A stretch of 61,627 bases of DNA. Origin: an uncultured Planctomycetales bacterium (GTDB lineage Bacteria; Omnitrophota; Gorgyraeia; Gygaellales; Profunditerraquicolaceae). Shown here piece by piece: positions 3,617 to 26,640 of the stretch. A program made the translations under genes and the position numbers. A model generated the notes under the pieces. It saw only the letters and a program-made list of their open reading frames with translations, was not told the DNA's origin and made no database searches. Within the stretch, counting starts at the first letter, position 1, and every line of letters starts with the position of its first letter. Location: positions 1-61,627 of the forward strand of contig CAYHBB010000005.1 of assembly GCA_964354795.1 (NCBI GenBank), written 5' to 3'.

Positions 3617-3644
3617 GATTGTTCTAAAGGGTTATTGCGAAGGG

Positions 3645-11229: not shown

Positions 11230-11328
11230 CTTTCTCCTTATTCAGGGACGGTTCTCAAACCGAAGCAAAACTGTCCCTCTTTAAGGGACAGTTTAAGATT
11301 AAGTTGAGAACCGTCCCTGATTTATTAA

Positions 11329-12078
11329 TTATTTTCCTTCCAGCTTTTTCACTGCCTCTAACGCAATCGTAATCAGATTTGACTCCGCCATGTAATATAG
11401 GGGATTCATAAATCCCATCTCTCCAGTGATGACATTGTCGCTGATTGCCAGGATCGAGCCTGCCTTTATTTTGTAAGTCTGGGCGATAGTAAGCAGGGTC
11501 GAAGAGACCATGTCCACTACTTTTGCGCCTTCTTTGCGCTTGACTTCCACTATTTCGCGTGTCTCACGAAGAAGCGCGTCAGTGGTCCAAGCCACGCCGC
11601 GGTGCACATTCAGGCCCATGCTTTTTGCGATATCATACATGGTGTCGGAGATCTTTTTATCGGCAACTGTCTTGAAATCTTTATCCACGTAATACGGGGT
11701 GACCCCGTCGCCGCGGATTACTTCATCTACAATAAATAAATCTCCGACTTTAATAAACTCATCCAAAGAGCCCGCGGTGCCGATACGAATAATATTCTGG
11801 ATCTCGGCATTGCACATCACTTCCGCGGTGATGGCGGTGTCAGTAGAGAACCTTCCGCCGTTCATGGCCGTGATCTTGATGCCGTTGAACATGCCGGTGT
11901 ACATATTATACTCCATGAAAGAGAAGTTCTTCACGGGATTTTCTATTTTTTTCAAAAGCACATCCAGCCTGTCTTTTGGCCCTGGGACAATGGCGTATTT
12001 ACCCACATCCTGCGGCCTGAGCTGCACCATCTGCGTCAGGTCCTTACCCGTCATATGCACATCTTTTTGCATCTGCAT
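11329..12078 (-). CDS. PNP/UDP-family nucleoside phosphorylase (candidate MTA/5'-dA phosphorylase)
   Basis: RIGTAGSL motif and VDMVSST. The ATG at 12078 was chosen because AGGAGAG lies 6 nt upstream. The longer tracked ORF only translates the family B leader. Confidence 0.65.
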   Translation of the reverse strand: MQMQKDVHMTGKDLTQMVQLRPQDVGKYAIVPGPKDRLDVLLKKIENPVKNFSFMEYNMYTGMFNGIKITAMNGGRFSTDTAITAEVMCNAEIQNIIRIGTAGSLDEFIKVGDLFIVDEVIRGDGVTPYYVDKDFKTVADKKISDTMYDIAKSMGLNVHRGVAWTTDALLRETREIVEVKRKEGAKVVDMVSSTLLTIAQTYKIKAGSILAISDNVITGEMGFMNPLYYMAESNLITIALEAVKKLEGK

Positions 12079-12090
12079 GTTTACTCTCCT

Positions 12091-12133
12091 TTCACAGTAA
12101 GTGAAACACTGGCCTATCCTATAAGGCCAGGTG
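12091..12133 (-). promoter_or_regulatory. Family B leader element (hairpin 1 plus hairpin 2, abutting the SD)
   Basis: Minus-strand RNA: CACCTGGCCT-TATAGGAT-AGGCCAGTG, then TTTCAC-TTACT-GTGAAA, then GGAGAG. Confidence 0.7.
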
Positions 12134-12162
12134 TTAAAAATTCCTGTTTCTCGCGGGCTATA

Positions 12163-12253
12163 GTTAGCGGGCACCTGCCGAAGACAGGGTGGCTTGGCTT
12201 GTCCTGCGCGCGGCTTATGGCCGTGCTCGGATCAAGCCAAGCCACCCGCTAAC
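12163..12253. repeat. Family C inverted-repeat element, copy 1
   Basis: GTTAGCGGG...GGTGGCTTGGCTTG pairs with CAAGCCAAGCCACCCGCTAAC. A 60-nt core is identical to 59433-59492. Confidence 0.85.
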
Positions 12254-12262
12254 ATGCATTCC

Positions 12263-13174
12263 TCACGAAGTAAATATTCTATCTAAATTCCCGCCTAAAA
12301 TACTTTCTTTATCTTCTTCCGACACCTCTAAACTCCGCACCGCGTTAATCGAGCTAAGGATGTCCTTCTTTGCCGGCCAGTCGCTGCCCCACAATAAATG
12401 CTTTGGACCTAAGAGTTCCAGCGCGGCAAGAAAATTAGCCTTGCGGATATCTCCGCTGGTATCCACATATATATTCTTCAGGAAATCCGTCGGATTGCCT
12501 TTTAAATCTTTGACAAAATCGACCCCGCGAAGCATTTGATATGTCGCATCAAATCGATGAGACAGATTTGGGATGACTCCGCCAAAATACCCAAAGATAA
12601 ATTTCACGCTATAATCACGCAGGATATCCGACATCAGGAGTTTACCAATACAAATCGTGGTGTCGAAAACATACTCGATCACCGGGGTCAGAAGTGGATC
12701 CTGCACCCGCTCAAAACCTATAGGATTGACTATCTGCGAATGCACGAAAATAGGGATAGCCTTCTCCTGCGCCAGCTTATACAAGATAAGGAATCTTGAA
12801 TCTTCAAGATATATCCCGTTATAGCTTGTGGCCAGCGAAATCGCCCTGAATCCAAGCTCTTCGGTAGCGCGCTTAAACTCCCACAACATCTCTTCCTCGT
12901 TATCAATAGGTAAAACAGCTGCCCCGATAAAACGCGAAGGATGATCTTTCAATATTCTGGCGACGTTATTATTAAAGGCCTTTGCTACCGCGCCGTGGCC
13001 ACCAAGCTTTACAAAAGCGTCAGAAGTTGGATACGAAAGTACCGCCTGATCGATTCCGGCCTCATCCATTGCCTTAAGCTGTGCCTCGATCATGCCCCAA
13101 CCCTTATGGTAAAAATGGGCGTTGAGAATCACCTCTTCCGGCAGCCAGTGGCTGTGCGCGTCGATTATCTTCAT
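12263..13174 (-). CDS. Amidohydrolase-2 (ACMSD/decarboxylase-type TIM-barrel metal hydrolase)
   Basis: IIDAHSHW N-terminal His-x-His, GSDWP near the C-terminus. Confidence 0.7.
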   Translation of the reverse strand: MKIIDAHSHWLPEEVILNAHFYHKGWGMIEAQLKAMDEAGIDQAVLSYPTSDAFVKLGGHGAVAKAFNNNVARILKDHPSRFIGAAVLPIDNEEEMLWEFKRATEELGFRAISLATSYNGIYLEDSRFLILYKLAQEKAIPIFVHSQIVNPIGFERVQDPLLTPVIEYVFDTTICIGKLLMSDILRDYSVKFIFGYFGGVIPNLSHRFDATYQMLRGVDFVKDLKGNPTDFLKNIYVDTSGDIRKANFLAALELLGPKHLLWGSDWPAKKDILSSINAVRSLEVSEEDKESILGGNLDRIFTS

Positions 13175-13239
13175 TGTAGTAACCTTTTTATGAAATCCGC
13201 AATCCTTCTACAGTTCAAAAGATACCGCATACTTCATGG

Positions 13240-13638
13240 CTAAAGCTTTTGCTCCCGCTCTTGGAGGATGCGCCGAATCATCTCCTGCTCATAAAAAACT
13301 TCGATCTCTTCCAGGCCCTTCTTGCCAAACTCTTTCTCAATCGACTTCTCAATAGCCTGAAGCTTCAGCTGCAGGAAATAATATTCCGGCTTCAGCTCCT
13401 TACCTTCGTATTTGCGGCCCAAAGCATCCTTTTCTTTATTCTGGATATATACCTTGAATTCCTCAATATAATTTTTGGCGGCTCTGCTTGTATCAAATTT
13501 ACGCATCTGCTCCAAAATATACTGATCGATTTCAAGTTGGGTGAACTTACGATCTATCTTATCCAGAGATTCCCTGACCTGCTTATAAAACCAGATCAGG
13601 TATCGTTTTTTAAGGCTTTTGCTGTCTTGCTTCTTCAT
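13240..13638 (-). CDS. Hypothetical coiled-coil protein
   Basis: Lys/Glu-rich helical composition with no recognisable motif. It abuts the upstream gene (2-nt gap). Confidence 0.5.
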   Translation of the reverse strand: MKKQDSKSLKKRYLIWFYKQVRESLDKIDRKFTQLEIDQYILEQMRKFDTSRAAKNYIEEFKVYIQNKEKDALGRKYEGKELKPEYYFLQLKLQAIEKSIEKEFGKKGLEEIEVFYEQEMIRRILQEREQKL

Positions 13639-13639
13639 A

Positions 13640-14248
13640 TTATTTCTTCACCAATTCCACTGTGTCAAAGTAAAGCGTACCCTTGGATTCAGGTAAAGGC
13701 TCAAACTGGAACACTTTGATGGGGTAATCAATGTTACCGTTATTGTCGGAGTTCTGAGGCTGCCAGTCGGTACGCAGGACAAATTTATCAAAGCTGCAGA
13801 CGATCTGTTTCCATCCAGTGAAGTCGTCTACAACGATGAAGCGCCACAGCTCATTACCGTTATCCTTGATATCAAAAGCCACCTGTGCCTTAGAGTCAGT
13901 GCCATACATAAAAAAGGAGATTGCGCTATACTCTTCCCATTTGATATCCTCGGGGCTTATCTGCCAGCTGGCATTCTTAGCGTCAAGGGCAGAACCCTTA
14001 GCAATATACATATACCCACCCTTAACCGCATCATATACTACTTTGATCGACTGATTTCCGCTATTCTTCGTATTTTTATCTGCGGTAACTACCACTGATG
14101 AGCCGTTACCAGAGCCAAAATCAAAAGTACCCGCAGGGCCTCCGGAAACATCCACCTCAAAATCATCTACCAACAAATTGTCCGCGGCAAAACAGACTAA
14201 AAATGTTACAAGGACAAAACTTAGAACTAAAAATAACGGCTTTCTCAT
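13640..14248 (-). CDS. Secreted beta-rich protein (CBM/CIA30-like fold suspected)
   Basis: Signal peptide MRKPLFLVLSFVLVTFLVCFA. The family guess is weak. Confidence 0.4.
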   Translation of the reverse strand: MRKPLFLVLSFVLVTFLVCFAADNLLVDDFEVDVSGGPAGTFDFGSGNGSSVVVTADKNTKNSGNQSIKVVYDAVKGGYMYIAKGSALDAKNASWQISPEDIKWEEYSAISFFMYGTDSKAQVAFDIKDNGNELWRFIVVDDFTGWKQIVCSFDKFVLRTDWQPQNSDNNGNIDYPIKVFQFEPLPESKGTLYFDTVELVKK

Positions 14249-14267
14249 TCTTCCTCCTTAGTTGTTA

Positions 14268-14378
14268 GGTTATCAGTATATCGGAATATCAGTTGGCGGA
14301 ATATCAGGATAGCAGGTTTAGTTTTCTCTGATTCCCTGATATTCTGAACGCTGATTCTCTAATTCCCTGATAATCTGG
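14268..14378. repeat. Family D inverted-repeat element (TATCAG/CTGATA arms), copy 1
   Basis: The left arm carries repeated (A/T)ATCAG and the right arm repeated CTGAT(A/T). It is collinear with 39824-39928 (GGTTATCA..ATATCGG..ATATCAG....CTGATATTC...CTGATAATCTG). Confidence 0.8.
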
Positions 14379-14393
14379 CTTACATATTCTAAG

Positions 14394-15167
14394 CTACTTA
14401 TCCGGATGCTGTTGTTTAAAGGGAATCACCGGAGCCGTCCACGGCGTCTGCTGATTGATCACCGAGATCTCCAAAGGACAGACATTCTGCGGAACCGTAA
14501 GCGCGAATTTTACCGCATTTTCAATTGCCTCAGTAGTCATCAGACGCGATGTGTTAGAGGTAATCTCGCTTAGCTTCCCGGTTAAATCGGTATCCGTAAC
14601 TCCTGGCAAGATGGAAGTCACCTTTATTCCATGGTCGCGCAACTCCCAAAATAACCCCTTAGAAAAAGCGCGTAACCCCACCTTTAAAGAGCTATAAACA
14701 ATAAAATTCCTCGGAAGCGGATCGCACAAGGTCGAACCGGAAACCATGTTGATGATCGCTCCGGATTTGTTTTTGATCATATCGTTGATCACCAGCCGTA
14801 TCAAGCGCACATACCCCAGATAATTGGTATGCGCCAGCCTCTCAAAATCCTCAATGGGCTGCTCCTGAAACGGATATTGGGAAGATACCCCCGCATTATT
14901 GATCAGGATGTCTATCCTGCCGTATTTCTCCTTGGTTTTGTTGACCAAGTTCTCCAAATCCTCTAATTTTGTGACATCACAGACAACCGGCAAGACTTCG
15001 ACCTTATACTTTTTAGCGATCTCTTCCGCCGTTTCTTTAAGCGGACCTTCCTGGCGCGCAGCAATCACCAAATTTATCCCGAGGCCCGCAGCTGTGCATG
15101 CCAGAGCCTTACCGATCCCGCGGCTGGCACCGGTTATAATCGCTGTCTTTCCTTTTAAGTTTTCCAT
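14394..15167 (-). CDS. Short-chain dehydrogenase/reductase (candidate ketoreductase)
   Basis: TGASRGIG, NNAG, and the YSSLK catalytic Tyr-x3-Lys. Confidence 0.85.
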   Translation of the reverse strand: MENLKGKTAIITGASRGIGKALACTAAGLGINLVIAARQEGPLKETAEEIAKKYKVEVLPVVCDVTKLEDLENLVNKTKEKYGRIDILINNAGVSSQYPFQEQPIEDFERLAHTNYLGYVRLIRLVINDMIKNKSGAIINMVSGSTLCDPLPRNFIVYSSLKVGLRAFSKGLFWELRDHGIKVTSILPGVTDTDLTGKLSEITSNTSRLMTTEAIENAVKFALTVPQNVCPLEISVINQQTPWTAPVIPFKQQHPDK

Positions 15168-15197
15168 CTTTACCCCCTTAATTTGCCATTATTTTTC

Positions 15198-15264
15198 AGC
15201 TCTGCAAATACCCCGAAGCCTACGCATGAAATTCTTGAGGCAACCCACAAGAATTTCAAAGTGA
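15198..15264. repeat. Family E intercistronic element, copy 1 (hairpin B module)
   Basis: CCCCGAAGCCTACGCATGAAATTCTTG...CAAGAATTTCAAAGTGATTAGGCAAGGGGCAA. It shares TTAGGCAAGGGGCAA with 23707-23722. Confidence 0.7.
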
Positions 15265-16383
15265 TTAGGCAAGGGGCAACCTTTTACTTAAGAATAATAA
15301 CCCGATAAGACAAAATCCAAAAACCGTAAAGCCCAAAGCAAAACTTTGTTGCATAACTAATCCACCCAAAGCTACACCTAAGCCCCCGGAAATAAAACGC
15401 ACGCTGCTGTTAAGGCTAGCTGCCTCATTCAAATATTCCTTAGGCAAATCAGTCAATAACGTAGAGAGCCCGGCATGATTAAAGGTCCAACCCACCCCCC
15501 AGACAATCATTAATAACGCCAACACCAGAAATGGCGATTGCAACATCAATAAAGACACGCTGATTACCATCAAGACTATTCCGATATTAAGAGTTCTAAC
15601 CCTGCCCAGAGAATCGGAAAACTTTCCCCCGATTACCTCACCAAATACTCCACTTAAGCTAGTCAGCGTTATCAGCATGCTGATATAAAATTGCGAAAGA
15701 ACGAAACTTTTTGAAAAATACACTGCCAGCCACTGCTGCACCCCGTGATAAAACAGGCTGACCATAAATATATAGGTAAATACTATTAAGACGTTTTTGT
15801 TCTTAAGCGCCCGACCGTAATTTACCCTGAATCCGGTGGCATCTTGCTTAAAGCTGGGTAGGAATAAATACATCGCCAGCATCAAAATGAATCCGGCTAT
15901 TCCAGGGAGCAGGAAAATGAGGCGCCAATGGATGAAGCTGCTTAGCAGGAGCCCAAGTAAGGACGCTACAAATGTAGCGCCGAAAAAAAATCCTACATAC
16001 TCACCGCGTTTCTTAGGCTCAATATGCTCGCCGATCAAGATCAAGCCAAGAGGTATAACTGATGCGCCGAACACCCCCATCAGCACCCGCGCGGTAAAGA
16101 GCGCGCCGATATTCTGCGCTAGAGCCGCCAGAATATTCGCGCAGGAGAAAAAAAACAAACAAGCCAGCTCTACTTTCTTGGCATCATATGCCCGCACCAG
16201 TGGGCCGTAGAAAAGCGCGGATACTCCGTATGGCAGCATATAAAACCATACGATTTTACCTACTAAAAACTGAGAAAGAGCAAATTCTTTTGCAACCGAG
16301 GGAACCAAAGCCGCGGCTGCCGCTACGTTGAATGATAATACCGCGCTTTCAAGGCAAAGAATTATAAAAGTTAAATTGCTCAA
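15265..16383 (-). CDS. MFS transporter
   Basis: About 12 predicted TM segments. An MFS motif-A-type loop lies at GPLVRAYDAKKV. Confidence 0.75.
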   Translation of the reverse strand: MSNLTFIILCLESAVLSFNVAAAAALVPSVAKEFALSQFLVGKIVWFYMLPYGVSALFYGPLVRAYDAKKVELACLFFFSCANILAALAQNIGALFTARVLMGVFGASVIPLGLILIGEHIEPKKRGEYVGFFFGATFVASLLGLLLSSFIHWRLIFLLPGIAGFILMLAMYLFLPSFKQDATGFRVNYGRALKNKNVLIVFTYIFMVSLFYHGVQQWLAVYFSKSFVLSQFYISMLITLTSLSGVFGEVIGGKFSDSLGRVRTLNIGIVLMVISVSLLMLQSPFLVLALLMIVWGVGWTFNHAGLSTLLTDLPKEYLNEAASLNSSVRFISGGLGVALGGLVMQQSFALGFTVFGFCLIGLLFLSKRLPLA

Positions 16384-16384
16384 C

Positions 16385-16867
16385 TTATTTCTTTGCTTCC
16401 CGCTCTATGATCTCTTTAAATATCTTCAAATTATGCTGCGAGCCTTCGTTAATGAACCCTTCGATCTGGGTATCATTAAATTTAAAAGTTTTTTCCATTT
16501 CAAAATCTTGAATCCAAGTCAGCTTAACAGGACAGAAGTCCGTAGTTTGGCCTCCATTAGCCAAAGCCATACCTTCCTGGACAAGCGTATAAAGCCAGAT
16601 AATTTTCATGTACTTAAAAGGAAATACTGGCTCATGACGCTGAGCATAGGTAAAATATTTATCCTTGAATAGCAACCTCCAGGAAACCCAGGACTTATCG
16701 TCTTCGTCAGTCAGGCGGAAAGTGATCTTATTATCTTTCTTTTCTAAAACCTCTGCCTTCTTATATTCAGTGCCGAATAATTCTGTCCAGCGAGTAATGT
16801 CGTTAGAAATATCGAAAACTAGATCATAAGGCGCGTTAATGATTATAGAATTACATGTATGGCCCAT
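16385..16867 (-). CDS. SRPBCC-superfamily protein (polyketide aromatase/cyclase-like)
   Basis: N-terminal IIINAPYDLVFDISNDITRWTELF is typical of Polyketide_cyc2/TcmN-like proteins, and the size (160 aa) fits. Confidence 0.6.
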   Translation of the reverse strand: MGHTCNSIIINAPYDLVFDISNDITRWTELFGTEYKKAEVLEKKDNKITFRLTDEDDKSWVSWRLLFKDKYFTYAQRHEPVFPFKYMKIIWLYTLVQEGMALANGGQTTDFCPVKLTWIQDFEMEKTFKFNDTQIEGFINEGSQHNLKIFKEIIEREAKK

Positions 16868-16877
16868 ATTTTCTCCT

Positions 16878-17675
16878 TTATAAAATCGCCACTACTCGCG
16901 CCCAGGCAGCACCGGTTTGCCTGATGCGCACCGGAAAACAAATGATCTTAAATCCGGAATCCGGCAACTTTTCTAAATTAGCCAGACGCTCGATATGAAT
17001 AAATTCTCGTTTGCGGCCATAAAAATGCGCCGGGTAAAACTTTTTCGGATTTTTTTCCTCTAAAAACTCTTTAAGCATAAAACGGTACGGCCGATCAATA
17101 CCCATAGTATCTACGCCAAAAACCTTAATCCCCTTGTCCATAAGATAATCAATTGCCGAGACATCTATTCCGGGATAATCGGTGAAATACTTCGGTCCGC
17201 CGTAAAACTTATCCGCGCCTGTACGCAATAAAACTATATCCAAAGCTTTAAGTGTATAGCTGATTTTCTTTAAGGCCTCTTCTATATCTTGGGAGGTGAT
17301 GGACTCAGCCGGTTTTTTATGCGACATATCCAGCTTCACGCCGTCCTGATAACAATACTCTAGAGGGATCTCATCCGCGGTTTTTGAAGGCCGGCCCTCA
17401 GATTTTGTGCCATAATGGAAAGAGTAATCCAGGTGGGTGCCTACATGCACCGGCGCATGTACCACTTCAAGGGAAAGAAACTCTTCATCCGGCAGATCTT
17501 CTTTTCTTAAGATGCGTTTACCCAGAAGATACTGAATCCTGCCTTTTAAGGTCTTCCCCATGATCACCCGGTTGAATTTCTCCACCCCGGCGGCATGCGT
17601 TACCCGCTCGATTTGGACACGGTGGACCTCAAAAGCCTTTTCGTCTATGGGCAGGCTTAAATCTACTATCTTCAT
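16878..17675 (-). CDS. Cyclase-family protein (PF04199, kynurenine formamidase-like fold)
   Basis: HVGTHLDYSFH matches the HxGTHxDxPxH-type metal motif. Confidence 0.7.
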   Translation of the reverse strand: MKIVDLSLPIDEKAFEVHRVQIERVTHAAGVEKFNRVIMGKTLKGRIQYLLGKRILRKEDLPDEEFLSLEVVHAPVHVGTHLDYSFHYGTKSEGRPSKTADEIPLEYCYQDGVKLDMSHKKPAESITSQDIEEALKKISYTLKALDIVLLRTGADKFYGGPKYFTDYPGIDVSAIDYLMDKGIKVFGVDTMGIDRPYRFMLKEFLEEKNPKKFYPAHFYGRKREFIHIERLANLEKLPDSGFKIICFPVRIRQTGAAWARVVAIL

Positions 17676-17905
17676 TATTTTACCAGTTTTGACTGAATAA
17701 CTGCATCTATCTCATTGATGGTCGAGAACTTAGTGATCTCTTTAGGGCTAAACTTAGTGCCAAAAGCCTTTTCCAAAGCAATCACGGACTCAACCATCTC
17801 GGTTGAGTCAACGCCAATACTATCTTGCAGGCTGACATCGTCTTTTAATTCTTCAACCTTAACTTTCAGAAGATTACTCAACACTCCTTTGATCTTTTCT
17901 TTCAT
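17675..17905 (-). CDS. Acyl carrier protein
   Basis: 76 aa, acidic, with a GVDSTEM phosphopantetheine-attachment Ser motif. It shares one base with the start of the downstream cyclase gene. Confidence 0.8.
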   Translation of the reverse strand: MKEKIKGVLSNLLKVKVEELKDDVSLQDSIGVDSTEMVESVIALEKAFGTKFSPKEITKFSTINEIDAVIQSKLVK

Positions 17906-17973
17906 AAACGCCTCCTATAAATTTCCGCCTCATAAATGCCGCAAAGCTTTCTGGCGCTTCGCATCTAAAAACT

Positions 17974-19434
17974 TTAAATCAACACTTCTCCATTGACCGC
18001 TGCCGCTTCCCACTTGTTAAGGTTATCCAACTGGTCCTTGAAACACAGCTTGGCAAGCGGGTCGAAATTACTCTCCATGATGCGGTTGATGCGTCCGGGC
18101 TTGGAGAAGAATTCACGCATGCACCAGGAACCCAGACGACCAAGGTCTTCCGTAGTCAGATGATCAGTGGGGATGACCGGATGCAAGAAATCCCAGGTAG
18201 AGAAATCCACTTTCTTCGGATCGATCCAGCCTTTCTTAAGCGCAATCCTCCACATCGGAGAGTTCGGGGCAGGAGTAACGTAACCTAACCACAGAATATC
18301 CGGATCCACCGCGTCGCTATACTCAAAACGCTTCTTGATAATAGCTTCGGTATCATGGTCAAAACCCATCATGATATCCGCGACAATAGCAATATCGTTT
18401 TTACGCAGGATATCAATGGTCTTTTGTATCTGATCAAGAGTGGTGCCTTTAGCTATTTTCTTAAGCTCTGATTGGGTGGTCACCTCGATGCCGAAAACGC
18501 CCATAAACAAACCATTTTCTTTCATCAGGGGCAGGATGGATTCGCAATTGACCCAGTCAATGGCCCGTCCCAAAGACACCCATTTGATGGGATTATTAGA
18601 TGCTTTTTTAAGTTCACAGAACTTCTGCACCCTGGCAGGGTCGACATTAAAATTATCGTCCTGAATGACCACAACCTTAACTCCATACTTTTTGTGCAGA
18701 AGATTCAGTTCCTCCATCACCCTTTCCGGAGACTTAGCGCGCCACTTTAAAAAGTCTGAGGGGGAACGCGGATCAAATTGATCCCACTCATAGCAAAATG
18801 TACAAGCTGAGGGGCATCCGCGGGAAGTGACCATATCCACAAACGGCTTCCAATAGGTGTGGCCCACGTATTTATCCATCGGGAACAGGTCATACGCCGG
18901 CAAAGGAAGCTTATCCAGATCCTCCATGAGCGGCTTATGCGGCCCCATGATTATCTCGCTGCCTACGCGTGAGGTTACACCACCCACATCCTTAAGCGGC
19001 TTATTCTTATCTATGGCTTCGATCAGGTCTCCGAAAGACTCCTCTTCCCCCATGACCACAAAATCAACTGCTGGATTCTCTTCCAGCGTCGGCACAGGCA
19101 TGGCTGAATACCACAACCCGCCAAGCACTATCTTTGTCTTAGGCAGCGCTTTTTTAATTCCTGCTGCCGCATCTTTAAAGTGGCGCAAAACTCCATAGCC
19201 ACCATAGCCGTGCAGCTGCTCACCCATTACTACCACATCCGGCGCTTTTTCTTTTACTTTTTCAATAAGCTGGTCCATGGGGATCTGCTCAGCCCTGCCG
19301 TCTATGACCGACACATCCTCATATCCTCTTTCCCGCACATATGCGGCCCAGTGCGCATAAAGCTGATTTGGCGAGCGGTGTATTCCGTGTGATGCCCAGG
19401 CGCCGACTTTCGGCATTACAAAAAGAATCTTCAT
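17974..19434 (-). CDS. B12-binding-domain radical SAM enzyme (class B)
   Basis: N-terminal Rossmann-like B12 domain (KILFVMP..., VVVMGE), then TSRGCPSACTFC (CxxxCxxC). Confidence 0.8.
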   Translation of the reverse strand: MKILFVMPKVGAWASHGIHRSPNQLYAHWAAYVRERGYEDVSVIDGRAEQIPMDQLIEKVKEKAPDVVVMGEQLHGYGGYGVLRHFKDAAAGIKKALPKTKIVLGGLWYSAMPVPTLEENPAVDFVVMGEEESFGDLIEAIDKNKPLKDVGGVTSRVGSEIIMGPHKPLMEDLDKLPLPAYDLFPMDKYVGHTYWKPFVDMVTSRGCPSACTFCYEWDQFDPRSPSDFLKWRAKSPERVMEELNLLHKKYGVKVVVIQDDNFNVDPARVQKFCELKKASNNPIKWVSLGRAIDWVNCESILPLMKENGLFMGVFGIEVTTQSELKKIAKGTTLDQIQKTIDILRKNDIAIVADIMMGFDHDTEAIIKKRFEYSDAVDPDILWLGYVTPAPNSPMWRIALKKGWIDPKKVDFSTWDFLHPVIPTDHLTTEDLGRLGSWCMREFFSKPGRINRIMESNFDPLAKLCFKDQLDNLNKWEAAAVNGEVLI

Positions 19435-19445
19435 ATCCTACCTCC

Positions 19446-19489
19446 TTGCGCAGAAAGCGCAACACTGGCTTATCCTTTAAAGCCAGGTG
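19446..19489 (-). promoter_or_regulatory. Family B leader element (intercistronic, between CLF and the rSAM gene)
   Basis: Minus-strand RNA: CACCTGGCTT-TAAAGGAT-AAGCCAGTG, then TTGCGC-TTTCT-GCGCAA, then GGAGG, then 6 nt, then ATG. Confidence 0.75.
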
Positions 19490-19498
19490 CATTCATTA

Positions 19499-20728
19499 TT
19501 ATGCTTTTTCTACTACCAATACTGAATTTATCCCGCCTCTGCCGCGCGAAATGATCAGCGCTTTATTGATCTTATGCTCTCTGGCTTCCTTACCTACATA
19601 TAGCAGACCTTCTACAGCCGGGCTCTCCAGATTAATAGTCGGCGGAACCAAGCTGTGCTCCATGGCATGGATCGCAATGACCATATCTACAACTCCGCTG
19701 GCACCCAAAAGATTTCCAAACATGGACTTGGGGCAGCTTACAGGAATATCTTTTATGCGCGCGCCAAAGACGCTTCTTATGGCGTCAATCTCTGAATTAT
19801 CCCAGATATCTACAGCCAAACCATCCAAAGAAATGTAATCAATTTTATCGGGTGAAATCTTTGCCTCATCCAAAGCCATCCTGATCGCCCGGGCTAATTC
19901 TTTTCCGTCGCCAGCAGGATTGATCCTGTCCACTCCGTCGCAGGTAGTACCAAAACCGGTAATATACGCCAGGGATTTAGCGCTACGCGACTTGACACGA
20001 TCTAGGCCCTCCAACACTACGATTGCCGCGCCCTCACCTATTACAAAACCATTACGCTTTTTATCAAAAGGCCGGTAAGCTTCCTGTGGATGCGCGTTAT
20101 CTACAGAAAGCGCGCCATAGGTATTGCAGCATAATAAGGCATATGGCGTAACCGGCGCTTCCATGCCTCCGGCTAAGATCATGTTCAGCTTATTCTTTGC
20201 CAGAACTTTGCGCGCATAACCAAGGGCCATCAAAGAACTTGCCCGGTCAGATACAACTGTCTTAGAAAACCCCTTGATCCCGTAATAAATAGACACCTGG
20301 CCTTGAGGAGCAGCGGGAAACCAGGCAGAAGCCATGTAAGGAGAAACCCCCTCCCTGCCTTCCATGTACATATCACGCAATTCTGTCTCGGCATACAACC
20401 ATCCTCCAATAGCATTACCTAAAAATATACCCACTAGATTAGGGTCTTCTTTTTTAATATCGACCCCCGCATCCTGCAGAGCCAGCTCCGAGGCGATCAG
20501 AGCCATGTGCGAGAAAGCGTCGATCTTCTTCAAAAGCCTCTCAGAAATTGTAGAATACTTATCCAGGTCGTCGATTTGCCCCGCGATATGCGAAGGATAA
20601 AGGGATGCGTCAAAACGGGTGATCTCTTTGACAAAAGAGCGTCCGCTTTTAATATTCGCCCAGAACTGGCGTTTGCCTATTCCAGAGGGGGTGACTACGC
20701 CGACACCAGTGATTGCAATCTTGCTCAC
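19499..20728 (-). CDS. Ketosynthase beta / chain-length-factor-like subunit
   Basis: WFPAAPQGQVSIYYG is CLF-like. The active-site position reads VVSDRASS (no Cys, and Arg where CLFs carry Gln). There is no NAHG His motif. The GTG start overlaps the KS-alpha stop (GTGA). Confidence 0.75.
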   Translation of the reverse strand: MSKIAITGVGVVTPSGIGKRQFWANIKSGRSFVKEITRFDASLYPSHIAGQIDDLDKYSTISERLLKKIDAFSHMALIASELALQDAGVDIKKEDPNLVGIFLGNAIGGWLYAETELRDMYMEGREGVSPYMASAWFPAAPQGQVSIYYGIKGFSKTVVSDRASSLMALGYARKVLAKNKLNMILAGGMEAPVTPYALLCCNTYGALSVDNAHPQEAYRPFDKKRNGFVIGEGAAIVVLEGLDRVKSRSAKSLAYITGFGTTCDGVDRINPAGDGKELARAIRMALDEAKISPDKIDYISLDGLAVDIWDNSEIDAIRSVFGARIKDIPVSCPKSMFGNLLGASGVVDMVIAIHAMEHSLVPPTINLESPAVEGLLYVGKEAREHKINKALIISRGRGGINSVLVVEKA

Positions 20729-21984
20729 TCATATCTCCTTAATACTAACGAGGAATGGATCCCGGAAAAACCGCTGCTTGTTTTAAGAATAGTGTTTACT
20801 TTCTTGGCTCGCGCGACATTGGGGATATAATCCAGATCACACAATGGATCCTTTTCTTCCTGATTGATCGTGGGAGGAAGAATATTCTTCTCAAAGATCA
20901 TTGCGCATACCGTAAACTCTACCGCGTTCGCCGCGGCCAGAGGGTGACCAATCATGGATTTTAAGGAGCTGATCGGTAATTTATAGGCGTAATCTCCAAA
21001 AATCATTTTATAGGCATTAGTTTCAAAGATATCATTCATACGCGTAGATGAACCGTGGGCATTGATATATTCGATTTCCCTTGGCTTCATCCCCGCATCT
21101 TTCAAGGCCAGACTTATGCAATTAGCCATGGCTTGGCCATCCGCGGGAAGATCGGTCATATGAAAGGCATTACAGCTTGTGCCAAAACCAAGGACTTCCG
21201 CATAAATATGCGCACCGCGCTTTAAGGCGTGATTCAATTCTTCCAAAATCAAAATTCCTGCGCCCTCCGATAAAACAAAACCGTCACGCTTTTTGTCAAA
21301 TGGCCGCGATGCTTTTTCCGGCTCATCATTTCTTGCTGACAAAACACTCACTACATCAAACGCGCCAAAGGTAATGGGGGTAATAGGAGCCTCTGCCGCG
21401 CCACATACCATCACATCATGCTCGCCGTCCTGAATAGTCTCCATGCCAAAACCCATGGAATCTGTCCCGGCGGTGCAGCCTGTGGAAAGCGTGTCACAAA
21501 TACCTTTAAATCCGTACCTGGCGCTGATTTCAATGGACGGCGTGTTAAACATCGCCGCGTCATACAGATCCGGCCGCACTTTGCTGGGATCTATCGGCTT
21601 TTTGCCGTTATCAGTGACCAAAGCAAACTCCTCTTCCATATATTTTGTACCGCAAATAGCATTGGCCAAACACACACCGATACGTTCCGGATCTTCTTTG
21701 GAGAAATTCAGTCCGCTATCTTTTATGGCCATATCGCCTGCCACCACGCCAAACTGCACATACCTATCCATGCGCATGACCTCTTTATGAGTAAGGCCCA
21801 ATTTAAAAGGATCAAAATCCCGCACCTCGGCGGCGATCTTGGTGTTAAATATGGAAACATCAAAACCATCCACCAACTTGACTCCGGAGACTCCGCCCGA
21901 CATGCCTTTCCAGATGTTATCCTTGCCAATGCCGTTGGGAGCCACTACTCCTATGCCGGTGATCACTACACGTCTTTTTGACAT
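20725..21984 (-). CDS. Type II PKS ketosynthase alpha subunit
   Basis: LSTGCTAGTDS (catalytic Cys), SCNAFHMT and INAHGSST (His-His), SMIGHPLAAA. The ATG at 21984 was chosen because AAGGAG lies 9 nt upstream. Confidence 0.8.
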   Translation of the reverse strand: MSKRRVVITGIGVVAPNGIGKDNIWKGMSGGVSGVKLVDGFDVSIFNTKIAAEVRDFDPFKLGLTHKEVMRMDRYVQFGVVAGDMAIKDSGLNFSKEDPERIGVCLANAICGTKYMEEEFALVTDNGKKPIDPSKVRPDLYDAAMFNTPSIEISARYGFKGICDTLSTGCTAGTDSMGFGMETIQDGEHDVMVCGAAEAPITPITFGAFDVVSVLSARNDEPEKASRPFDKKRDGFVLSEGAGILILEELNHALKRGAHIYAEVLGFGTSCNAFHMTDLPADGQAMANCISLALKDAGMKPREIEYINAHGSSTRMNDIFETNAYKMIFGDYAYKLPISSLKSMIGHPLAAANAVEFTVCAMIFEKNILPPTINQEEKDPLCDLDYIPNVARAKKVNTILKTSSGFSGIHSSLVLRRYE

Positions 21985-22001
21985 CAGATAATTCTCCTTG
22001 A

Positions 22002-22592
22002 TCATTCTTCCACTCTCTTGACTTTAAAAACAATATTTCCTCCGTCAGGGCAAGTGACGGTATCGATAGAGTCAGGGTCCGGCATAAAGAAAAACTTCGC
22101 TCCGAAATTAAGCGCGAACAGCGCCGGAAACGCGGTATGGAATGCCGCACCGCAGAAACCCGGAATACATTTTAACCCCTGCGTCTCCCACTTATCCCCC
22201 ACCTTATAACCAAAGGTACATTTGCCTTTTGCCTGCACTACTTCAATGACCATTTTTTTCGGATTCGGACCCTTGAAATTCGCATCCTTTGGGATCACCT
22301 GGACCAAGCCGCCCTTATCCAAAATCTCCGCTTTAAACTCTAATTTTCCTCCGTCAGGGCAAGTCACTAAAAGCGAGCGCTGATTATCGCGAAAAGGAAA
22401 ACAGGCCCCGAAACTTAAAGCATAGATCAACGGAAACAAAGCATGGGCCAAACCTAAACAAAAATGCTTAGGCGGATGAGTGAAATCCTCAAGAATTATC
22501 TCATCGCCGATCTCATAGCCGTGATAACAAAGGCCAAATACTCCGGTTACAGTGAGTTTTAATTTCGGAAAAGGGGTATTTACTTCGCCCAT
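22002..22592 (-). CDS. Tandem-duplicated TIGR04076-like protein (two CPDGG modules)
   Basis: Two ~95-aa halves, ending VTCPDGGKLEFKAE and VTCPDGGNIVFKVKR. Each has a GDE/GDK...FC...F(P)xxxAL core. The family name is recalled from memory. Confidence 0.5.
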   Translation of the reverse strand: MGEVNTPFPKLKLTVTGVFGLCYHGYEIGDEIILEDFTHPPKHFCLGLAHALFPLIYALSFGACFPFRDNQRSLLVTCPDGGKLEFKAEILDKGGLVQVIPKDANFKGPNPKKMVIEVVQAKGKCTFGYKVGDKWETQGLKCIPGFCGAAFHTAFPALFALNFGAKFFFMPDPDSIDTVTCPDGGNIVFKVKRVEE

Positions 22593-22593
22593 A

Positions 22594-23595
22594 TTAATAT
22601 AATCCTTTCGTATTATCCAGAAGCTCCTGCTTAGAGAAAAATTTACCGGCAGGCTCTACCTGATGCACCATTCTAACCAGTTTTTCATTTAAAGGAGCGC
22701 TGACGTTATTCTTCTTGGCCAAAGCCACAAATTCTCCGTTTATATAATCTATCTCGCTGGCCTTGCCTCTTTTGATGCTCTGCAGAATCGAGCCGTACAT
22801 CGGCTCGCGGCTAAGACTAGTCATGATTCCGGAGAATATTTTCGCTGCTTCTGGCAGGCTAAGCGCAGCGAGCTTAATCACCCTTTCCAGAGGAAAATCC
22901 GGAAGTGAAGATAAATTGACCCCTGCCTTCTCTACAACAGTTAAGCCCTCTTTCCAAATAGCCACACTTACGGCGCAGATATCAGTATCAGAAAAAGCTT
23001 CCTGCATACTTACGCCCAATATCGCCGGAATACAGTTGTTGGAATTTACAAAAACCTTCAAATATTTCATCCCCAGAATATCCTCGCTGACTATTGTGGG
23101 AAAAATAGTATTAAGAACGTGGCTTACCTTGACCACTGAATCGTCATTCCTGCCAAAGGCCTTGCCGATGATCCAGCTTTTGTCAAAGTTGTGCACAATC
23201 TCACCGGGCTTTAGATAAGTAGATCCAAACATCACGATGCTGGAGATGATCTTCTCTTTTGGGATAAACTCGGCAGCAATGCTATCTGCCTGCAAGCCGT
23301 TTTGAGTGGTAAGGACAAGCGCGTCGCGGATAAAATCTATATTGGCTTTAAGCGCGCTCTCTAAATCCTGGGTCTTGGTGGCTAAAATCACTAAATCTAC
23401 TTTCTCGCTTAAAGTCTCGCAAACCGGCAGGCTGATATCCAGCTCTCCGCGCACCCCGGAGATCTTTAATCCGTCGGCCTTAATAGCTTTAACCGCATCC
23501 TGCCTGCCGACCAAAACTACATCATTGCCTTTAAGTTTTAGATATCCAGCGACCAGTCCGCCAATGGCCCCTGCACCGATAACCGCAATTTTCAT
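22594..23595 (-). CDS. ApbA/PanE-family 2-dehydropantoate reductase-like oxidoreductase
   Basis: MKIAVIGAGAIGG Rossmann start, about 330 aa, with a C-terminal KPR-type helical domain. Confidence 0.7.
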   Translation of the reverse strand: MKIAVIGAGAIGGLVAGYLKLKGNDVVLVGRQDAVKAIKADGLKISGVRGELDISLPVCETLSEKVDLVILATKTQDLESALKANIDFIRDALVLTTQNGLQADSIAAEFIPKEKIISSIVMFGSTYLKPGEIVHNFDKSWIIGKAFGRNDDSVVKVSHVLNTIFPTIVSEDILGMKYLKVFVNSNNCIPAILGVSMQEAFSDTDICAVSVAIWKEGLTVVEKAGVNLSSLPDFPLERVIKLAALSLPEAAKIFSGIMTSLSREPMYGSILQSIKRGKASEIDYINGEFVALAKKNNVSAPLNEKLVRMVHQVEPAGKFFSKQELLDNTKGLY

Positions 23596-23606
23596 TTAAT
23601 GAGCGC

Positions 23607-23722
23607 ATAACTTACGGAGCACTCGTTTTGCTCGCTGCGACGTAAGTTATTTGCGCGAATTAACCCCGCAGCCTGCCACAAAAATATCGAAGAGATTTTT
23701 GGGGCGCTTAGGCAAGGGGCAA
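23607..23722. repeat. Family E intercistronic element, copy 2 (hairpin A, linker and hairpin B)
   Basis: ATAACTTACG...CGTAAGTTAT, GCGCGAATTAACCCCGC, CAAAAATaTC..GAtTTTTGG, CTTAGGCAAGGGGCAAG. It is collinear with 25681-25789. Confidence 0.8.
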
Positions 23723-23737
23723 GACTATACATAATTA

Positions 23738-24007
23738 TTATTTCTTTGCGTTTTTAGGATACCCATACTTCTTATAATCAAATCCAGTCTGCTCCAGGAG
23801 GCGGATCATCATGCTGTAAAACGGAGAAGGCACATCGGAGAAAAAAGCCGCTACCACATCCTGCTCCTGAACCTGATTTGAATTTCTGCCTTTGGCTAAC
23901 TCCTGAGCTACTTTAGTCACCGCCACCTCGGTAATGTGGCGGTGAAACACCGGTATCTTAGCGATAAAAACCCTGAACCTCTCTTTGACTTCCGGATTCC
24001 AATCCAT
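23738..24007 (-). CDS. Small PCP-reductase-domain-like protein
   Basis: WNPEVKERFRVFIAKIPVFHRHITEVAV resembles the W..EA...L..IP.F.R pattern of PF08369. The ATG at 24007 was chosen because GGAGAG lies upstream. Confidence 0.4.
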   Translation of the reverse strand: MDWNPEVKERFRVFIAKIPVFHRHITEVAVTKVAQELAKGRNSNQVQEQDVVAAFFSDVPSPFYSMMIRLLEQTGFDYKKYGYPKNAKK

Positions 24008-24021
24008 ATCTAGAGCTCTCC

Positions 24022-24065
24022 TTACGCAGAAAGCGTAACACTGGCCCATCCTTTAGGGCCAGGTG
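24022..24065 (-). promoter_or_regulatory. Family B leader element (first gene of the PKS-like operon)
   Basis: Minus-strand RNA: CACCTGGCCC-TAAAGGAT-GGGCCAGTG, then TTACGC-TTTCT-GCGTAA, then GGAGAG. Confidence 0.75.
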
Positions 24066-24085
24066 AAATCTTAGTTTAATTTAAT

Positions 24086-24101
24086 TAGTAAAATTTTACT
24101 A
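24086..24101. promoter_or_regulatory. Perfect 16-bp palindrome (candidate operator)
   Basis: TAGTAAAATTTTACTA lies immediately downstream of the -10 box of the minus-strand promoter. Confidence 0.5.
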
Positions 24102-24102
24102 T

Positions 24103-24130
24103 ATTATAGGCTTAAAACTCCCCCTGTCAA
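24103..24130 (-). promoter_or_regulatory. Near-consensus sigma70 promoter of the PKS-like operon
   Basis: On the minus strand: TTGACA (24130-24125), a 16-nt spacer, then TATAAT (24108-24103). Confidence 0.65.
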
Positions 24131-24201
24131 GAAAAACCTGAGGTTTTTACAAGAAGAAATCTTACGTATTCACAATGAGTTATGTATTCAAAGAAGGGTT
24201 T

Positions 24202-24723
24202 CTAGACGGACTTGATCAGGTCGATGAGGAAATCCGACTCTGCCTGCACCTGACGCCTGTTATGCTCCAGAATGCGGGCAAGGGAAGAAGGCTTTTTTTT
24301 GGACTGCTCTTTGATCATCTGCTCAAGGCCTTTAGAGACCCTGTTAAGGATAGAAAGCCTGGCGCGCATCCTGCGCTTGGCTACCGCAGGTTTCATGAAG
24401 TGCAGGAAATAAAGGCTTAAATCCAGGCTGAATTGTGGCCGCTTAAAATTAAGAAAACTTTTGTTAAGCAAATCGTCAAAGTAGGATTCGCCCTTGGGGG
24501 TGAGCTCATAAACAATGCGTTCGGGCCGGTTGCCGGGCTTGGTGGTACGTTTGATCACCAAACCGTCTCTTTCCAGGACCTGCAAAGGATAATATATGGA
24601 CTTTAAATCTACACCGGCAAATAAAGAAAGTATTTCTTTGATCTTGCGCTTGATATCGTAGCCGTGCTTGGGGCTTTCCTTAAGTAAACCTAATAACAGC
24701 AATTCTTTTTCGATCATGCGCAC
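24202..24723 (-). CDS. PadR-family transcriptional regulator
   Basis: [21 protein letters not shown]... and [13 protein letters not shown] form the winged-helix core, with a long C-terminal helical domain. Confidence 0.8.
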
Positions 24724-25682
24724 ACTCCCATGCTGCGGAATTTCTTATAACGGGCTTTAAGCAACTCTTCGGGCGGCTCTGCTTTTAATTCTTTCAGGTT
24801 CTTAAGCAACACTTCTTTTATATTCTGCGCCATGGCCTGCGGGTCGCGATGCGCTCCGCCCAGCGGCTCAGGAATAACTCCATCAATAATCCCCATCTTA
24901 ATCAGGTCCTGACCGGTAAGTTTTAAGACTGCCGCAGCATCCGGCGCCCGGGCGCCGTCTTTCCAGAGTATCGCCGCACACCCTTCCGGCGATATAACCG
25001 AATAATAAGAATTCTCAAACACAAATACACGGTCAGCGACTCCGATACCTAATGCGCCGCCTGAGCCGCCCTCGCCTATGACTGTAGCGATTATAGGAGT
25101 GGCTATTTGCATCATCTCTCTGAGATTATATGCGATGGCCTGAGACTGTCCGCGCTCTTCAGCTCCTATCCCCGGATATGCACCGGGCGTATCGATAAAA
25201 ATCACAATAGGTAGCCCGAATTTATCGGCCAGCTGCATCACCCTCAAAGCCTTGCGGTATCCCTCAGGATGGGCGCAGCCAAAATTACGCTTTAAATTCT
25301 CTTTAGTGTCCCGGCCCTTCTGATGCCCCATCACTACGACCTTTTGATTATCCAGCTTTGCCAGGCCGCAGATCATAGCCTTATCGTCGCTAAAGCCCCG
25401 ATCCCCATGCAGCTCTATAAAGTCCGTCATCAGCATGCTGATATAATCCAGGGTATAGGGACGTTTGGGGTGGCGGGCCAACTGGACTTTCTGCCAGGCA
25501 GTAAGATTACTATAGGTGGTTTTCTTCTTCTGCTCCAGCTTTTCTTCAAGGCGCTTAAGCTCGGCGGAAAGGTCGATCTTACGGCTGGCGGAAAAATGCT
25601 TCAGCTCGTTAATTTTTTTCTCAAGCTCGACAATATCTTTTTCGAAACTTAATCCAATGGTAGTCATTTTTAATGAGCCCAC
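24714..25682 (-). CDS. accA: Acetyl-CoA carboxylase carboxyltransferase alpha subunit
   Basis: [40 protein letters not shown]. The true start may be the ATG at 25667. Confidence 0.9.
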
Positions 25683-25789: not shown

Positions 25790-25808
25790 AATCTTATCAT
25801 CACCTCGC

Positions 25809-26630: not shown

Positions 26631-26640
26631 ACATCCTCCT

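Follow-up and report, generated by a model that had tools for sequence, protein, structure and literature searches.

Does an uncultured member of the Candidatus Omnitrophota make aromatic polyketides, and, if so, is the pathway a sporadic acquisition or part of the phylum's own metabolism? The question is raised by a run of genes on the minus strand (positions 12263–24130) of a 61,627-nt stretch of DNA (contig CAYHBB010000005.1; hereafter the window, to which all positions refer), whose host belongs to the Candidatus Omnitrophota. The Omnitrophota are uncultured nanobacteria found worldwide, and what is known of their physiology comes from genomes alone; type II polyketide synthase (PKS) clusters normally represent patchy secondary metabolism. 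An initial annotation, made from the letters alone, had described the run as a type II PKS-like cluster, a reading supported here by the ketosynthase (KS) pair, the acyl carrier protein (ACP), the cyclase and the synteny. Based on this evidence we consider it likely that the genes form one operon for an anaerobe-type, iterative aromatic type II PKS, and that this operon is a vertically inherited core trait of the Omnitrophota.

Prior knowledge of such a system is sparse. A 2023 catalogue of chain-length factors (CLFs) lists Candidatus Omnitrophica among 14 phyla without further description, and in the literature searched this was the only place where Ca. Omnitrophica appeared in a type II PKS context (PMC10132072). 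The main Omnitrophota genomics paper makes no mention of polyketides or PKSs. A study of the Cariaco Basin reported expressed antiSMASH 'ladderane' clusters in Omnitrophota metagenome-assembled genomes (MAGs), which may be the operon described here (PMC9902471). New in the present work are the Omnitrophota host together with its conservation of the cluster, a cassette spanning several phyla, and a conserved palindrome that is a candidate operator.

The run comprises 14 uninterrupted minus-strand genes (Table 1), transcribed in the order 103-aa gene, ApbA/PanE, tandem TIGR04076, KS-α, KS-β, B12 radical SAM, ACP, PF04199 cyclase, SRPBCC, MFS, SDR, CBM_11-like, 132-aa protein and Amidohydro_2. 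Within the stretch from ApbA to MFS most adjacent genes overlap by 1–4 nt or sit at most 10 nt apart, pointing to a single transcript; the radical SAM gene is the sole one there that is flanked by gaps, of 64–68 nt. The family calls for the operon genes clear curated thresholds, except for the 103-aa and the 132-aa proteins. The gene list of the initial annotation was confirmed throughout, in strand as well as in coordinates, including its B12 radical SAM, PanE/ApbA, SDR and MFS calls, all of which were borne out by family matches.

KS-α carries the motifs STGCTAG, CNAFHMT and NAHGSST previously pointed out for it, which form the Cys-His-His triad and are invariant among 81 sequences; its database gene call begins at Met8, giving 419 aa. 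The GTG start of KS-β overlaps the KS-α stop codon, and this 4-nt overlap couples both genes, so that the GTGA coupling already noted follows from the gene coordinates. KS-β is 33% identical to KS-α and has lost the triad: the Cys position reads VVSDRASS (Cys to Arg, with an Asp before it), both catalytic His are replaced by Asp, and these substitutions are invariant in about 70 orthologues. The proposed CLF-like nature of KS-β thereby held, whereas the motif FPAAPQGQVS, which the initial annotation had given for it, turned out to be a conserved motif of this KS-β family lying away from the catalytic position.

Comparison with the PDB ranked AntD of the Photorhabdus anthraquinone PKS (389 bits) and actinorhodin KS-α (387 bits) above all FabFs (at most 366 bits) as matches for KS-α, with the polyene-type KS Iga11 (6kxd) reaching just 243 bits. 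A 5-residue insertion (RPDLY) is common to KS-α, AntD and actinorhodin KS-α, and a C-terminal SSGFSGIHS motif to KS-α and AntD; neither is found in FabF or in KS-β. Relatives of KS-β were sought among 1.8 billion cluster representatives. The nearest outside the Omnitrophota were 'Deltaproteobacteria' MAG proteins (56% identity), the nearest named ones those of the clostrubin producers Clostridium beijerinckii and C. puniceum (44%), followed further out by Ktedonobacter racemifer (40%) and Archangium (39%). These relatives belong to non-actinobacterial type II PKS loci; published work exists on the Ktedonobacter locus and on that of the clostrubin producers. In a bootstrapped neighbour-joining (NJ) tree rooted on FabF, KS-α fell into a clade (81%) holding actinorhodin KS-α, AntD and the clostridial KS-α, and KS-β into a clade (100%) including the proteins of the clostrubin producers, Ktedonobacter and Archangium; the two halves of the tree branch alike, in the order Omnitrophota, Delta-type, Nitrospirota. 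The AntD/actinorhodin ranking, the shared insertion and the NJ clades together place the KS pair outside FabF, as the reading of the initial annotation requires.

The remaining parts of a minimal aromatic pathway are present as well. The ACP, recognised earlier by GVDST, has the serine motif GVDSTEMVE and clears its HMM threshold (PF00550, 41 bits vs a cutoff of 21); its DS motif does not vary among orthologues, and DSTE(M/V)VE recurs in the clostridial TIGR04076-ACP fusions described below. Likewise, the PF04199 metal-dependent cyclase passes its threshold (107 bits) and carries the expected HVGTHLDYSFH (HxGTHxDxxxH); it is 43–47% identical to the cyclases of clostridial and Nitrospirota loci, and we take PF04199 to correspond to the OxyN slot of the KS-CLF-ACP-TcmN-OxyN architecture. 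The SRPBCC protein gave just 25 bits with Pfam, whereas it matched the WhiE/TcmN aromatase/cyclases (ARO/CYC) of the PDB over its full length (E 5e-20), thereby specifying the earlier ARO/CYC-like call as a single-domain TcmN type. It keeps the residues aligned to TcmN W28, F32, Y35, W65, S67, R69 and R82 as well as to M91, W95, W108, Q110 and N136, which we presume to be the pocket residues as numbered in the TcmN structure paper. Relative to TcmN and WhiE, the ARO/CYC contains an insertion of about 14 residues (MALANGGQTTDFCP, residues ~99–112), several positions of which are conserved among the Omnitrophota orthologues. The Amidohydro_2 protein, previously placed in the set with reservation, is nearest to LigW, ACMSD and gamma-resorcylate decarboxylase, is present in all 31 loci that span its position and has a homologue in the clostridial loci (33% identity). 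This assignment to non-oxidative aromatic-acid decarboxylases fits the terminal decarboxylation proposed for dendrubins (PMC7693217) and pyxidicyclines. Sequence and family comparison thus identifies the minimal PKS, both cyclases and the type of decarboxylase.

These results bear on the possibility that the operon serves a specialised fatty-acid or lipid pathway instead, with the KS pair either acting as a heterodimeric FabF in the cell's own type II fatty acid elongation or belonging to a 'ladderane-like' radical SAM cluster, and with an unusual membrane lipid as the product. KS-α shares its fold and triad with FabF, NCBIfam names both KS proteins FabF-like, accA adjoins the operon, no further KS gene was found in any flank, and the 'Deltaproteobacteria'-type locus presented below carries MMPL and LolA-like lipid-export genes; moreover, expressed antiSMASH 'ladderane' clusters have been reported from Omnitrophota MAGs (PMC9902471). 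The operon, however, is devoid of FabZ/FabA dehydratase, enoyl reductase, FabH and FabD, and it encodes a TcmN-type aromatase/cyclase with an intact pocket next to the PF04199 cyclase. KS-α remains below the FabF equivalog cutoff, has the aromatic-type 5-residue insertion and a dead partner, and groups with aromatic KS-α, separated in the NJ tree (81%) from the FabFs, and KS-β groups with the KS-β of the clostrubin producers. On the ladderane-associated model TIGR04072 (rSAM_ladder_B12) the radical SAM protein scored 69 bits against a cutoff of 360, and the ladderane reading was rejected on this ground. We regard a lipid product as very unlikely.

As a second possibility, the operon could encode a type II PKS-like system that makes no aromatic compound, of the polyene, aryl-polyene or cispentacin kind, with the KS/KS-β pair giving a reduced or five-membered product. 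The KS-β of highly reducing type II systems lacks the CLF glutamine, as does the window KS-β. Two reductases, ApbA and SDR, are present, and the ACP and both KS proteins gave matches to the models of the cispentacin proteins AmcB and AmcF; all of these are below threshold (AmcF 165 and 137 bits vs a cutoff of 325; AmcB 35 vs 80), and the cispentacin reading was rejected. Against this kind of system also stand the low score of KS-α with Iga11 relative to AntD (243 vs 389 bits), the absence of a dehydratase gene, and the combination of TcmN-type ARO/CYC and PF04199 cyclase, hallmarks of aromatic pathways (PMC7693217). Together, they render a non-aromatic product highly improbable.

To delineate the distribution of the aromatic type II PKS operon, we used as a comparison set the best 80 species-representative GTDB genomes, i.e. 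at least 80 species, which contain KS-α orthologues of 79–88% identity. Nearly all of these genomes are labelled Candidatus Omnitrophota and several Planctomycetales; at the protein level, more than 120 clusters (90% identity level) are at least 84% identical to KS-α. The block is collinear in 80 of 80 loci from the nucleoside phosphorylase gene (11329) to past accA (tblastn with 20 window proteins), in agreement with the synteny expected for a genuine cluster. Counted among the loci spanning the position of each gene, the ARO/CYC, cyclase, ACP, KS-β, KS-α and 103-aa genes are present in 100%, as are ApbA (67/67), TIGR04076 (70/70), radical SAM (56/56), SDR (43/43) and Amidohydro_2 (31/31), with the MFS (31/47) and CBM_11-like (27/43) genes behaving as accessory; the 132-aa gene is present in 40 of 43. 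The mean pairwise identities of KS-α (0.82), radical SAM (0.855), SDR (0.85) and TIGR04076 (0.83) compare with 0.78 for accA and 0.81 for the phosphorylase (PNP) among the flanking housekeeping genes, and as the PKS genes diverge, so do these flanks (rho 0.3–0.6), a correlation at least as strong as that of accA with PNP (0.31). No mobile-element genes were found among the window open reading frames (ORFs) scanned against Pfam, and the remaining window is of housekeeping character (EF-G, PurH, MnmE, Mur ligase). Complete presence, collinearity, accA-like identity and flank-tracking divergence indicate a vertically inherited core trait rather than a mobile cluster: across the Omnitrophota genomes recovered here the cluster is fixed and vertically inherited. 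Such strict conservation across species suggests a product of importance to the producing cell.

The same data address a third alternative, in which identical enzymology would belong to a sporadic, horizontally acquired secondary-metabolite cluster producing an exported antibiotic or toxin, perhaps directed against prey or hosts. The operon does contain an efflux-type MFS transporter and the Delta-type locus MMPL and LolA-like export genes, the type II polyketides clostrubin and dendrubins of anaerobes are antibiotics (PMC7693217), and Omnitrophota traits suggest parasitism or predation (PMC10066038). In contrast, the locus is collinear in 80 species-level genomes amid housekeeping genes with its core genes present in 100%, identities equal or exceed that of accA with divergence tracking the flanks, 16 of 47 loci lack the MFS gene, and the Pfam-scanned ORFs of the window include no mobile-element genes. 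An acquired antibiotic cluster therefore appears unlikely.

The regulatory region is conserved along with the genes. The near-consensus promoter with a palindrome described in the initial annotation proved to be a 12/12 match to the sigma-70 consensus (24130–24103), the only such match within the scanned 11000–28200 (17 kb), followed by a perfect 16-bp palindrome, TAGTAAAATTTTACTA. This palindrome occurs as a single copy in the window compared to 0.03 expected by chance, and the exact sequence is found once per locus in 62 of 80 loci, nearly always ~1.9 kb upstream of KS-α; many of the loci without it end too near KS-α to reach its position. A TTGAC[AT]...TAnAAT site precedes the first operon gene in 47 of 63 related loci. 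Further upstream of the set are PadR and accA, as had been reported. The PadR-family regulator, found at this position in 38 of 80 loci, is a candidate binder of the palindrome; in several long loci (e.g. L001, L005) the palindrome is kept with no PadR match. The Rfam scan of the window yielded no riboswitch near the operon.

We compared the operon with known systems. The 'ancestral' non-actinobacterial aromatic PKS architecture has been described as KS-CLF-ACP-TcmN-OxyN (PMC7693217), and by its sequence the window operon groups as a member of this branch. The AQ-256 (ant, Photorhabdus) and dendrubin (den, Dendrosporobacter) clusters share with it the minimal set and the types of cyclase, with a duplicated TcmN-TcmN ARO/CYC compared to the single-domain protein of the window (PMC7693217). 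AntD is the best PDB match for KS-α and shares its SSGFSGIHS motif. Partners of the radical SAM, TIGR04076, ApbA or Amidohydro_2 type are not described for ant and den, whose products, in contrast, are known. The actinobacterial PKSs of the actinorhodin, tetracenomycin and whiE clusters resemble the window in KS-α (387 bits) and ARO/CYC (E about 1e-19), and differ in the KS-β (243 bits and about 30% identity to the actinorhodin CLF, no Gln), in the lack of oxygenases in the window operon, in the anaerobic nanobacterial host and in the fixation of the cluster across the phylum.

The closest studied relative is the PKS locus of the clostrubin-producing clostridia C. beijerinckii and C. puniceum, which, judging by the producer species and by the ClrB of the dendrubin paper, is probably the clr cluster. 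It likewise resides in a strict-anaerobe host and comprises KS-α and KS-β followed by a PF04199 cyclase and a single-domain TcmN-type ARO/CYC, together with Amidohydro_2, a discrete ACP and two TIGR04076 domains, amounting to seven protein families in common with the window (identities: KS-α 45%, KS-β 43%, cyclase 43%, ARO/CYC 38%, Amidohydro_2 33%). The clostridial loci (L161, L162) read KS-α, KS-β, a 175-aa TIGR04076-ACP fusion, PF04199 cyclase, ARO/CYC and phosphopantetheinyl transferase (PPTase), then CMD, DUF362, DUF169, a 96-aa TIGR04076 protein and a further PPTase, and finally Amidohydro_2, ACP, two FrsA-like hydrolases and KSIII. They lack the B12 radical SAM, ApbA, DUF2621-like and SDR proteins; conversely, the two PPTases are missing from the window operon, and KSIII, the FrsA-like hydrolases, DUF362, DUF169 and CMD were found neither there nor in the Omnitrophota loci, which makes the window operon a relative of the clostrubin-type cluster rather than a member. 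Furthermore, one of the clostridial TIGR04076 domains is fused to an ACP, that of the window to a second TIGR04076 domain, and the clostridial locus is confined to a few Clostridium species whereas the window cluster is phylum-wide. A Bacillota MAG locus (L164) resembles the clostridial loci. The fusion gene lies at 11260–11787 in L161 and at 11272–11781 in L164, without strong Pfam matches, and a small stand-alone TIGR04076 domain protein at 15656–15946 and 18432–18731, respectively. We found no mention of the TIGR04076-ACP fusion in the literature searched. Of the 'non-canonical partners' of the initial annotation, TIGR04076 and Amidohydro_2 recur in the PKS locus of the clostrubin producers, whereas the B12 radical SAM, ApbA and DUF2621-like proteins do not.

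Beyond the Omnitrophota, a cassette of ApbA, two TIGR04076 domains, KS-α, KS-β, ACP, cyclase and ARO/CYC was also identified in Nitrospirota and 'Deltaproteobacteria' MAGs. Divergent versions on metagenome contigs (KS-α identity 59–75%) keep the genes in this order in most cases, with the exception of L101, where SDR and Amidohydro_2 genes stand between the TIGR04076 pair and KS-α; the radical SAM, 103-aa, SDR and Amidohydro_2 genes shift position and remain nearby. The 'Deltaproteobacteria'-type locus L086 additionally contains MMPL and LolA-like export genes, two aldehyde:ferredoxin oxidoreductases (AFORs), an FMN reductase and an FAD oxidase-like gene. These extra genes are located at 40–7007 and 13161–17342 of that locus, the AFORs being tungsten-type and the FAD gene amine-oxidase-like. 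The Nitrospirota locus L163 consists of DUF2621-like, AFOR, ApbA and two separate 90-aa genes, followed by KS-α, KS-β, ACP, cyclase, ARO/CYC and FMN reductase; its tungsten-type AFOR and its FMN reductase genes lie at 376–2277 and 8147–8872. No SDR homologue was found in L086 or L163. Of the two small L163 genes, one corresponds to the N-half (47%) and the other to the C-half (66%) of the window tandem protein, indicating that the Omnitrophota tandem TIGR04076 is a fusion of two paralogues. Relatives from Leptolyngbya and Bacillus cytotoxicus have the same PKS core without TIGR04076 and Amidohydro_2, and carry cupin, CMD and AMP-ligase genes instead. The Omnitrophota operon differs from the PKS locus of the clostrubin producers in the conserved set of B12 radical SAM with its PCP_red-like partner, ApbA and SDR, in the fusion of the TIGR04076 paralogues into one protein, and in its fixation across the recovered Omnitrophota.

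Among the accessory enzymes, the class B radical SAM protein shows the domain order of BchE and HpnJ, B12-binding then radical SAM, as well as the CxxxCxxC motif. BchE (TIGR02026) was its best-scoring model with 207 bits, far below the family cutoff of 481, and HpnJ gave 150 bits against 578; identity with BchE or HpnJ was rejected on these scores, and the PKS context differs from chlorophyll or hopanoid synthesis. The 103-aa helical protein opening the operon had been called PCP-reductase-like. The small gene itself was confirmed, whereas the PCP_red label is weak: DUF2621 was matched by 15 of 16 orthologues (best E 7e-8), PCP_red by 10 of 16 and only at E ≥ 0.014. A single-sequence model (pLDDT 58) was judged too poor for a fold search. 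Where the gene order is rearranged (L095, L108 and L113), the 103-aa gene comes immediately after the radical SAM gene or overlaps it, and the two remain linked through rearrangements; gene order thus suggests that the 103-aa protein is a probable partner of the radical SAM enzyme.

The tandem CPDGG protein was confirmed as TIGR04076 (97 bits vs a cutoff of 33, in two stretches), with TCPDGG in both halves and 832 homologue clusters. Three Cys and one His are invariant across all ten TIGR04076 domains compared, suggesting a metal or Fe-S site. An AlphaFold2 model (pLDDT 72) retrieved nothing from the PDB with Foldseek at E ≤ 0.001, the best TM-score being ~0.2. Its fusion to an ACP in the clostridia implies that the domain works on intermediates bound to the carrier, and provides a first functional context for this uncharacterised family; the two papers that mention it in the literature searched do not deal with polyketides in title or abstract. 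Of the two secreted or coiled-coil proteins proposed earlier, both were recovered; the 202-aa one, whose N-terminus reads as a signal peptide, further matches CBM_11.

Based on these assignments we propose the following pathway. Malonyl-CoA would be supplied by the AccA-containing carboxylase, and the cell's own malonyl-CoA:ACP transacylase would load malonyl units on the ACP, as in other type II PKSs. The KS-α/KS-β heterodimer would build a poly-β-ketoacyl-ACP, the TcmN/WhiE-type ARO/CYC suggesting that this chain is unreduced. The ARO/CYC would then fold and aromatise the first ring, the PF04199 cyclase would close the later rings, and the decarboxylase would take off the terminal carboxylate to give an anthrone-like or other polyphenolic core. 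The BchE-like B12 radical SAM enzyme and its PCP_red-like partner might either C-methylate this core, C-methylation being the commonest class B radical SAM chemistry, or oxidise a benzylic carbon, which with water would constitute an oxygen-free route from anthrone to quinone. ApbA and SDR may reduce carbonyls, and the two TIGR04076 domains (Cys3His) may act on ACP-tethered intermediates. As the most probable product we regard a redox-active or oxygen-protective polyphenol or quinone needed by the cell itself, which the MFS pump would export in some species only; this cell-internal role is favoured by the strict conservation, the housekeeping setting and the dispensability of MFS in a third of the species.

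Several observations weigh against assigning the operon to a vertically inherited aromatic PKS. In the PDB, KS-β scores higher against a Firmicute FabF (291 bits) than against the actinorhodin CLF (243 bits), an ambiguity that is resolved by the search of 1.8 billion clusters. On the TIGR03150 fabF equivalog KS-α comes near the cutoff of 493.75 with 474 bits (KS-β 372), and it clears the cutoff of the PRK07314 'beta-ketoacyl-ACP synthase II' subfamily (464 vs 387). A separate housekeeping FabF was not found within the 10-kb flanks of 157 loci, and the NJ tree is rooted on just two FabFs and holds no Omnitrophota FabF. The canonical CLF glutamine is absent from KS-β, the position reading Asp-Arg in all orthologues. 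The C. beijerinckii KS-β likewise has Asp-Arg at the lost Cys position, and AntE, a functional CLF, is without Gln and has Asp there (PMC6638757), so that the glutamine is no defining feature of the non-actinobacterial branch. Furthermore, the operon contains no PPTase or malonyl transacylase gene, aromatic polyketide clusters are not usually conserved over such a number of species, and the roles of the radical SAM, TIGR04076, ApbA and SDR proteins are what we infer.

If the operon is an aromatic PKS as proposed, it offers a chemical biomarker and an experimental handle for the Omnitrophota, and the cassette exhibits a design for anaerobic aromatic pathways where oxygenases are unusable, in which the BchE-like radical SAM enzyme might take on tailoring without oxygen. 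In databases the cluster is likely mislabelled as FabF, following the NCBI names, and possibly as 'ladderane' by antiSMASH. A more far-reaching and, as a whole, rather doubtful proposition is that the Omnitrophota have as a core, vertically inherited metabolite an aromatic compound of an O2-independent type II PKS, which could be an oxygen-protective polyphenol, a polyketide quinone or a redox carrier. Its synthesis would involve two components new to the biochemistry of type II PKSs, a pair of Cys3His TIGR04076 domains acting on ACP-bound intermediates and a BchE-like B12 radical SAM enzyme. Were this true, the radical SAM enzyme and its PCP_red-like partner would replace the oxygenases or SAM methyltransferases of aerobes, and the cassette shared with Nitrospirota, 'Deltaproteobacteria' and Clostridia would represent an anaerobic form of aromatic polyketide synthesis.

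Table 1 Features of the operon and its upstream region, in the order of transcription within the operon.
Feature	Position	Strand	Remarks
accA	24714–25682	−	upstream of the operon, beyond PadR
PadR-family regulator	24202–24723	−	upstream of the operon; candidate palindrome binder
Sigma-70-type promoter	24103–24130	−	TTGACA-16 nt-TATAAT
Palindrome, candidate operator	24086–24101		directly after the −10 box
103-aa helical protein	23738–24049	−	DUF2621/PCP_red-like superfamily; first operon gene
ApbA/PanE-family NAD(P)H-dependent ketoreductase	22594–23595	−	TIGR00745 180 bits vs cutoff 141
Tandem TIGR04076 protein	22002–22592	−	two fused paralogous domains
KS-α	20725–22005	−	catalytic ketosynthase
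KS-β	19499–20728	−	CLF-like partner
Class B (B12-binding) radical SAM protein	17974–19434	−	BchE/HpnJ-like
ACP	17675–17905	−	acyl carrier protein
PF04199 cyclase	16878–17675	−	metal-dependent
SRPBCC-fold ARO/CYC	16385–16867	−	single-domain, TcmN/WhiE-type
MFS transporter	15265–16383	−	family match; accessory
Classical SDR	14394–15167	−	candidate ketoreductase; 176 bits
Secreted CBM_11-like protein	13640–14248	−	202 aa; CBM_11 78 bits; accessory
132-aa protein	13240–13638	−	charged, coiled-coil-like; no family threshold cleared
Amidohydro_2 protein	12263–13174	−	non-oxidative aromatic-acid decarboxylase type

Directly downstream of the operon (5912–12174, minus strand) we observed genes for a PNP_UDP_1 nucleoside phosphorylase, an MtnA-like isomerase (IF-2B family), a class II aldolase, an LsrF-like DeoC aldolase, a zinc alcohol dehydrogenase and an aldehyde dehydrogenase. 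This set presumably resembles the 'DHAP shunt' that salvages 5'-deoxyadenosine, a radical SAM by-product, with specific-family scores below cutoff. Phosphorylase, isomerase and aldolase genes also flank the cassette in the 'Deltaproteobacteria'-type locus L086 (17339–20974). About 7 kb downstream of the operon, at 2591–5186 (minus strand), an RlmN-like radical SAM gene accompanies an AMP-forming acyl-CoA ligase, whose best match is a long-chain-fatty-acid-CoA ligase (418 bits vs a cutoff of 476).

The inference of an anaerobic host made in the initial annotation fits the HypD, HypE-like and HypF-like proteins and the several radical SAM genes of the window. The hydrogenase maturation genes are located on the minus strand at 47408–48415 (HypE-like, AIR-synthase-related), 56122–57213 (HypD) and 57505–58650 (HypF-type, holding only the C-terminal Kae1-like domains of HypF), and between them lie genes for a 626-aa PilZ-domain protein and a 781-aa DUF3857/transglutaminase protein. 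At 43087–46310 (minus strand), two D-Ala-D-Ala-ligase-like ATP-grasp genes come after a radical SAM gene of the lysine-2,3-aminomutase-like type, and together the three may constitute a β-lysine or peptide-modification module. Two tRNA genes, at 75–147 (minus strand) and 357–439 (plus strand), are the only Rfam matches in the window.

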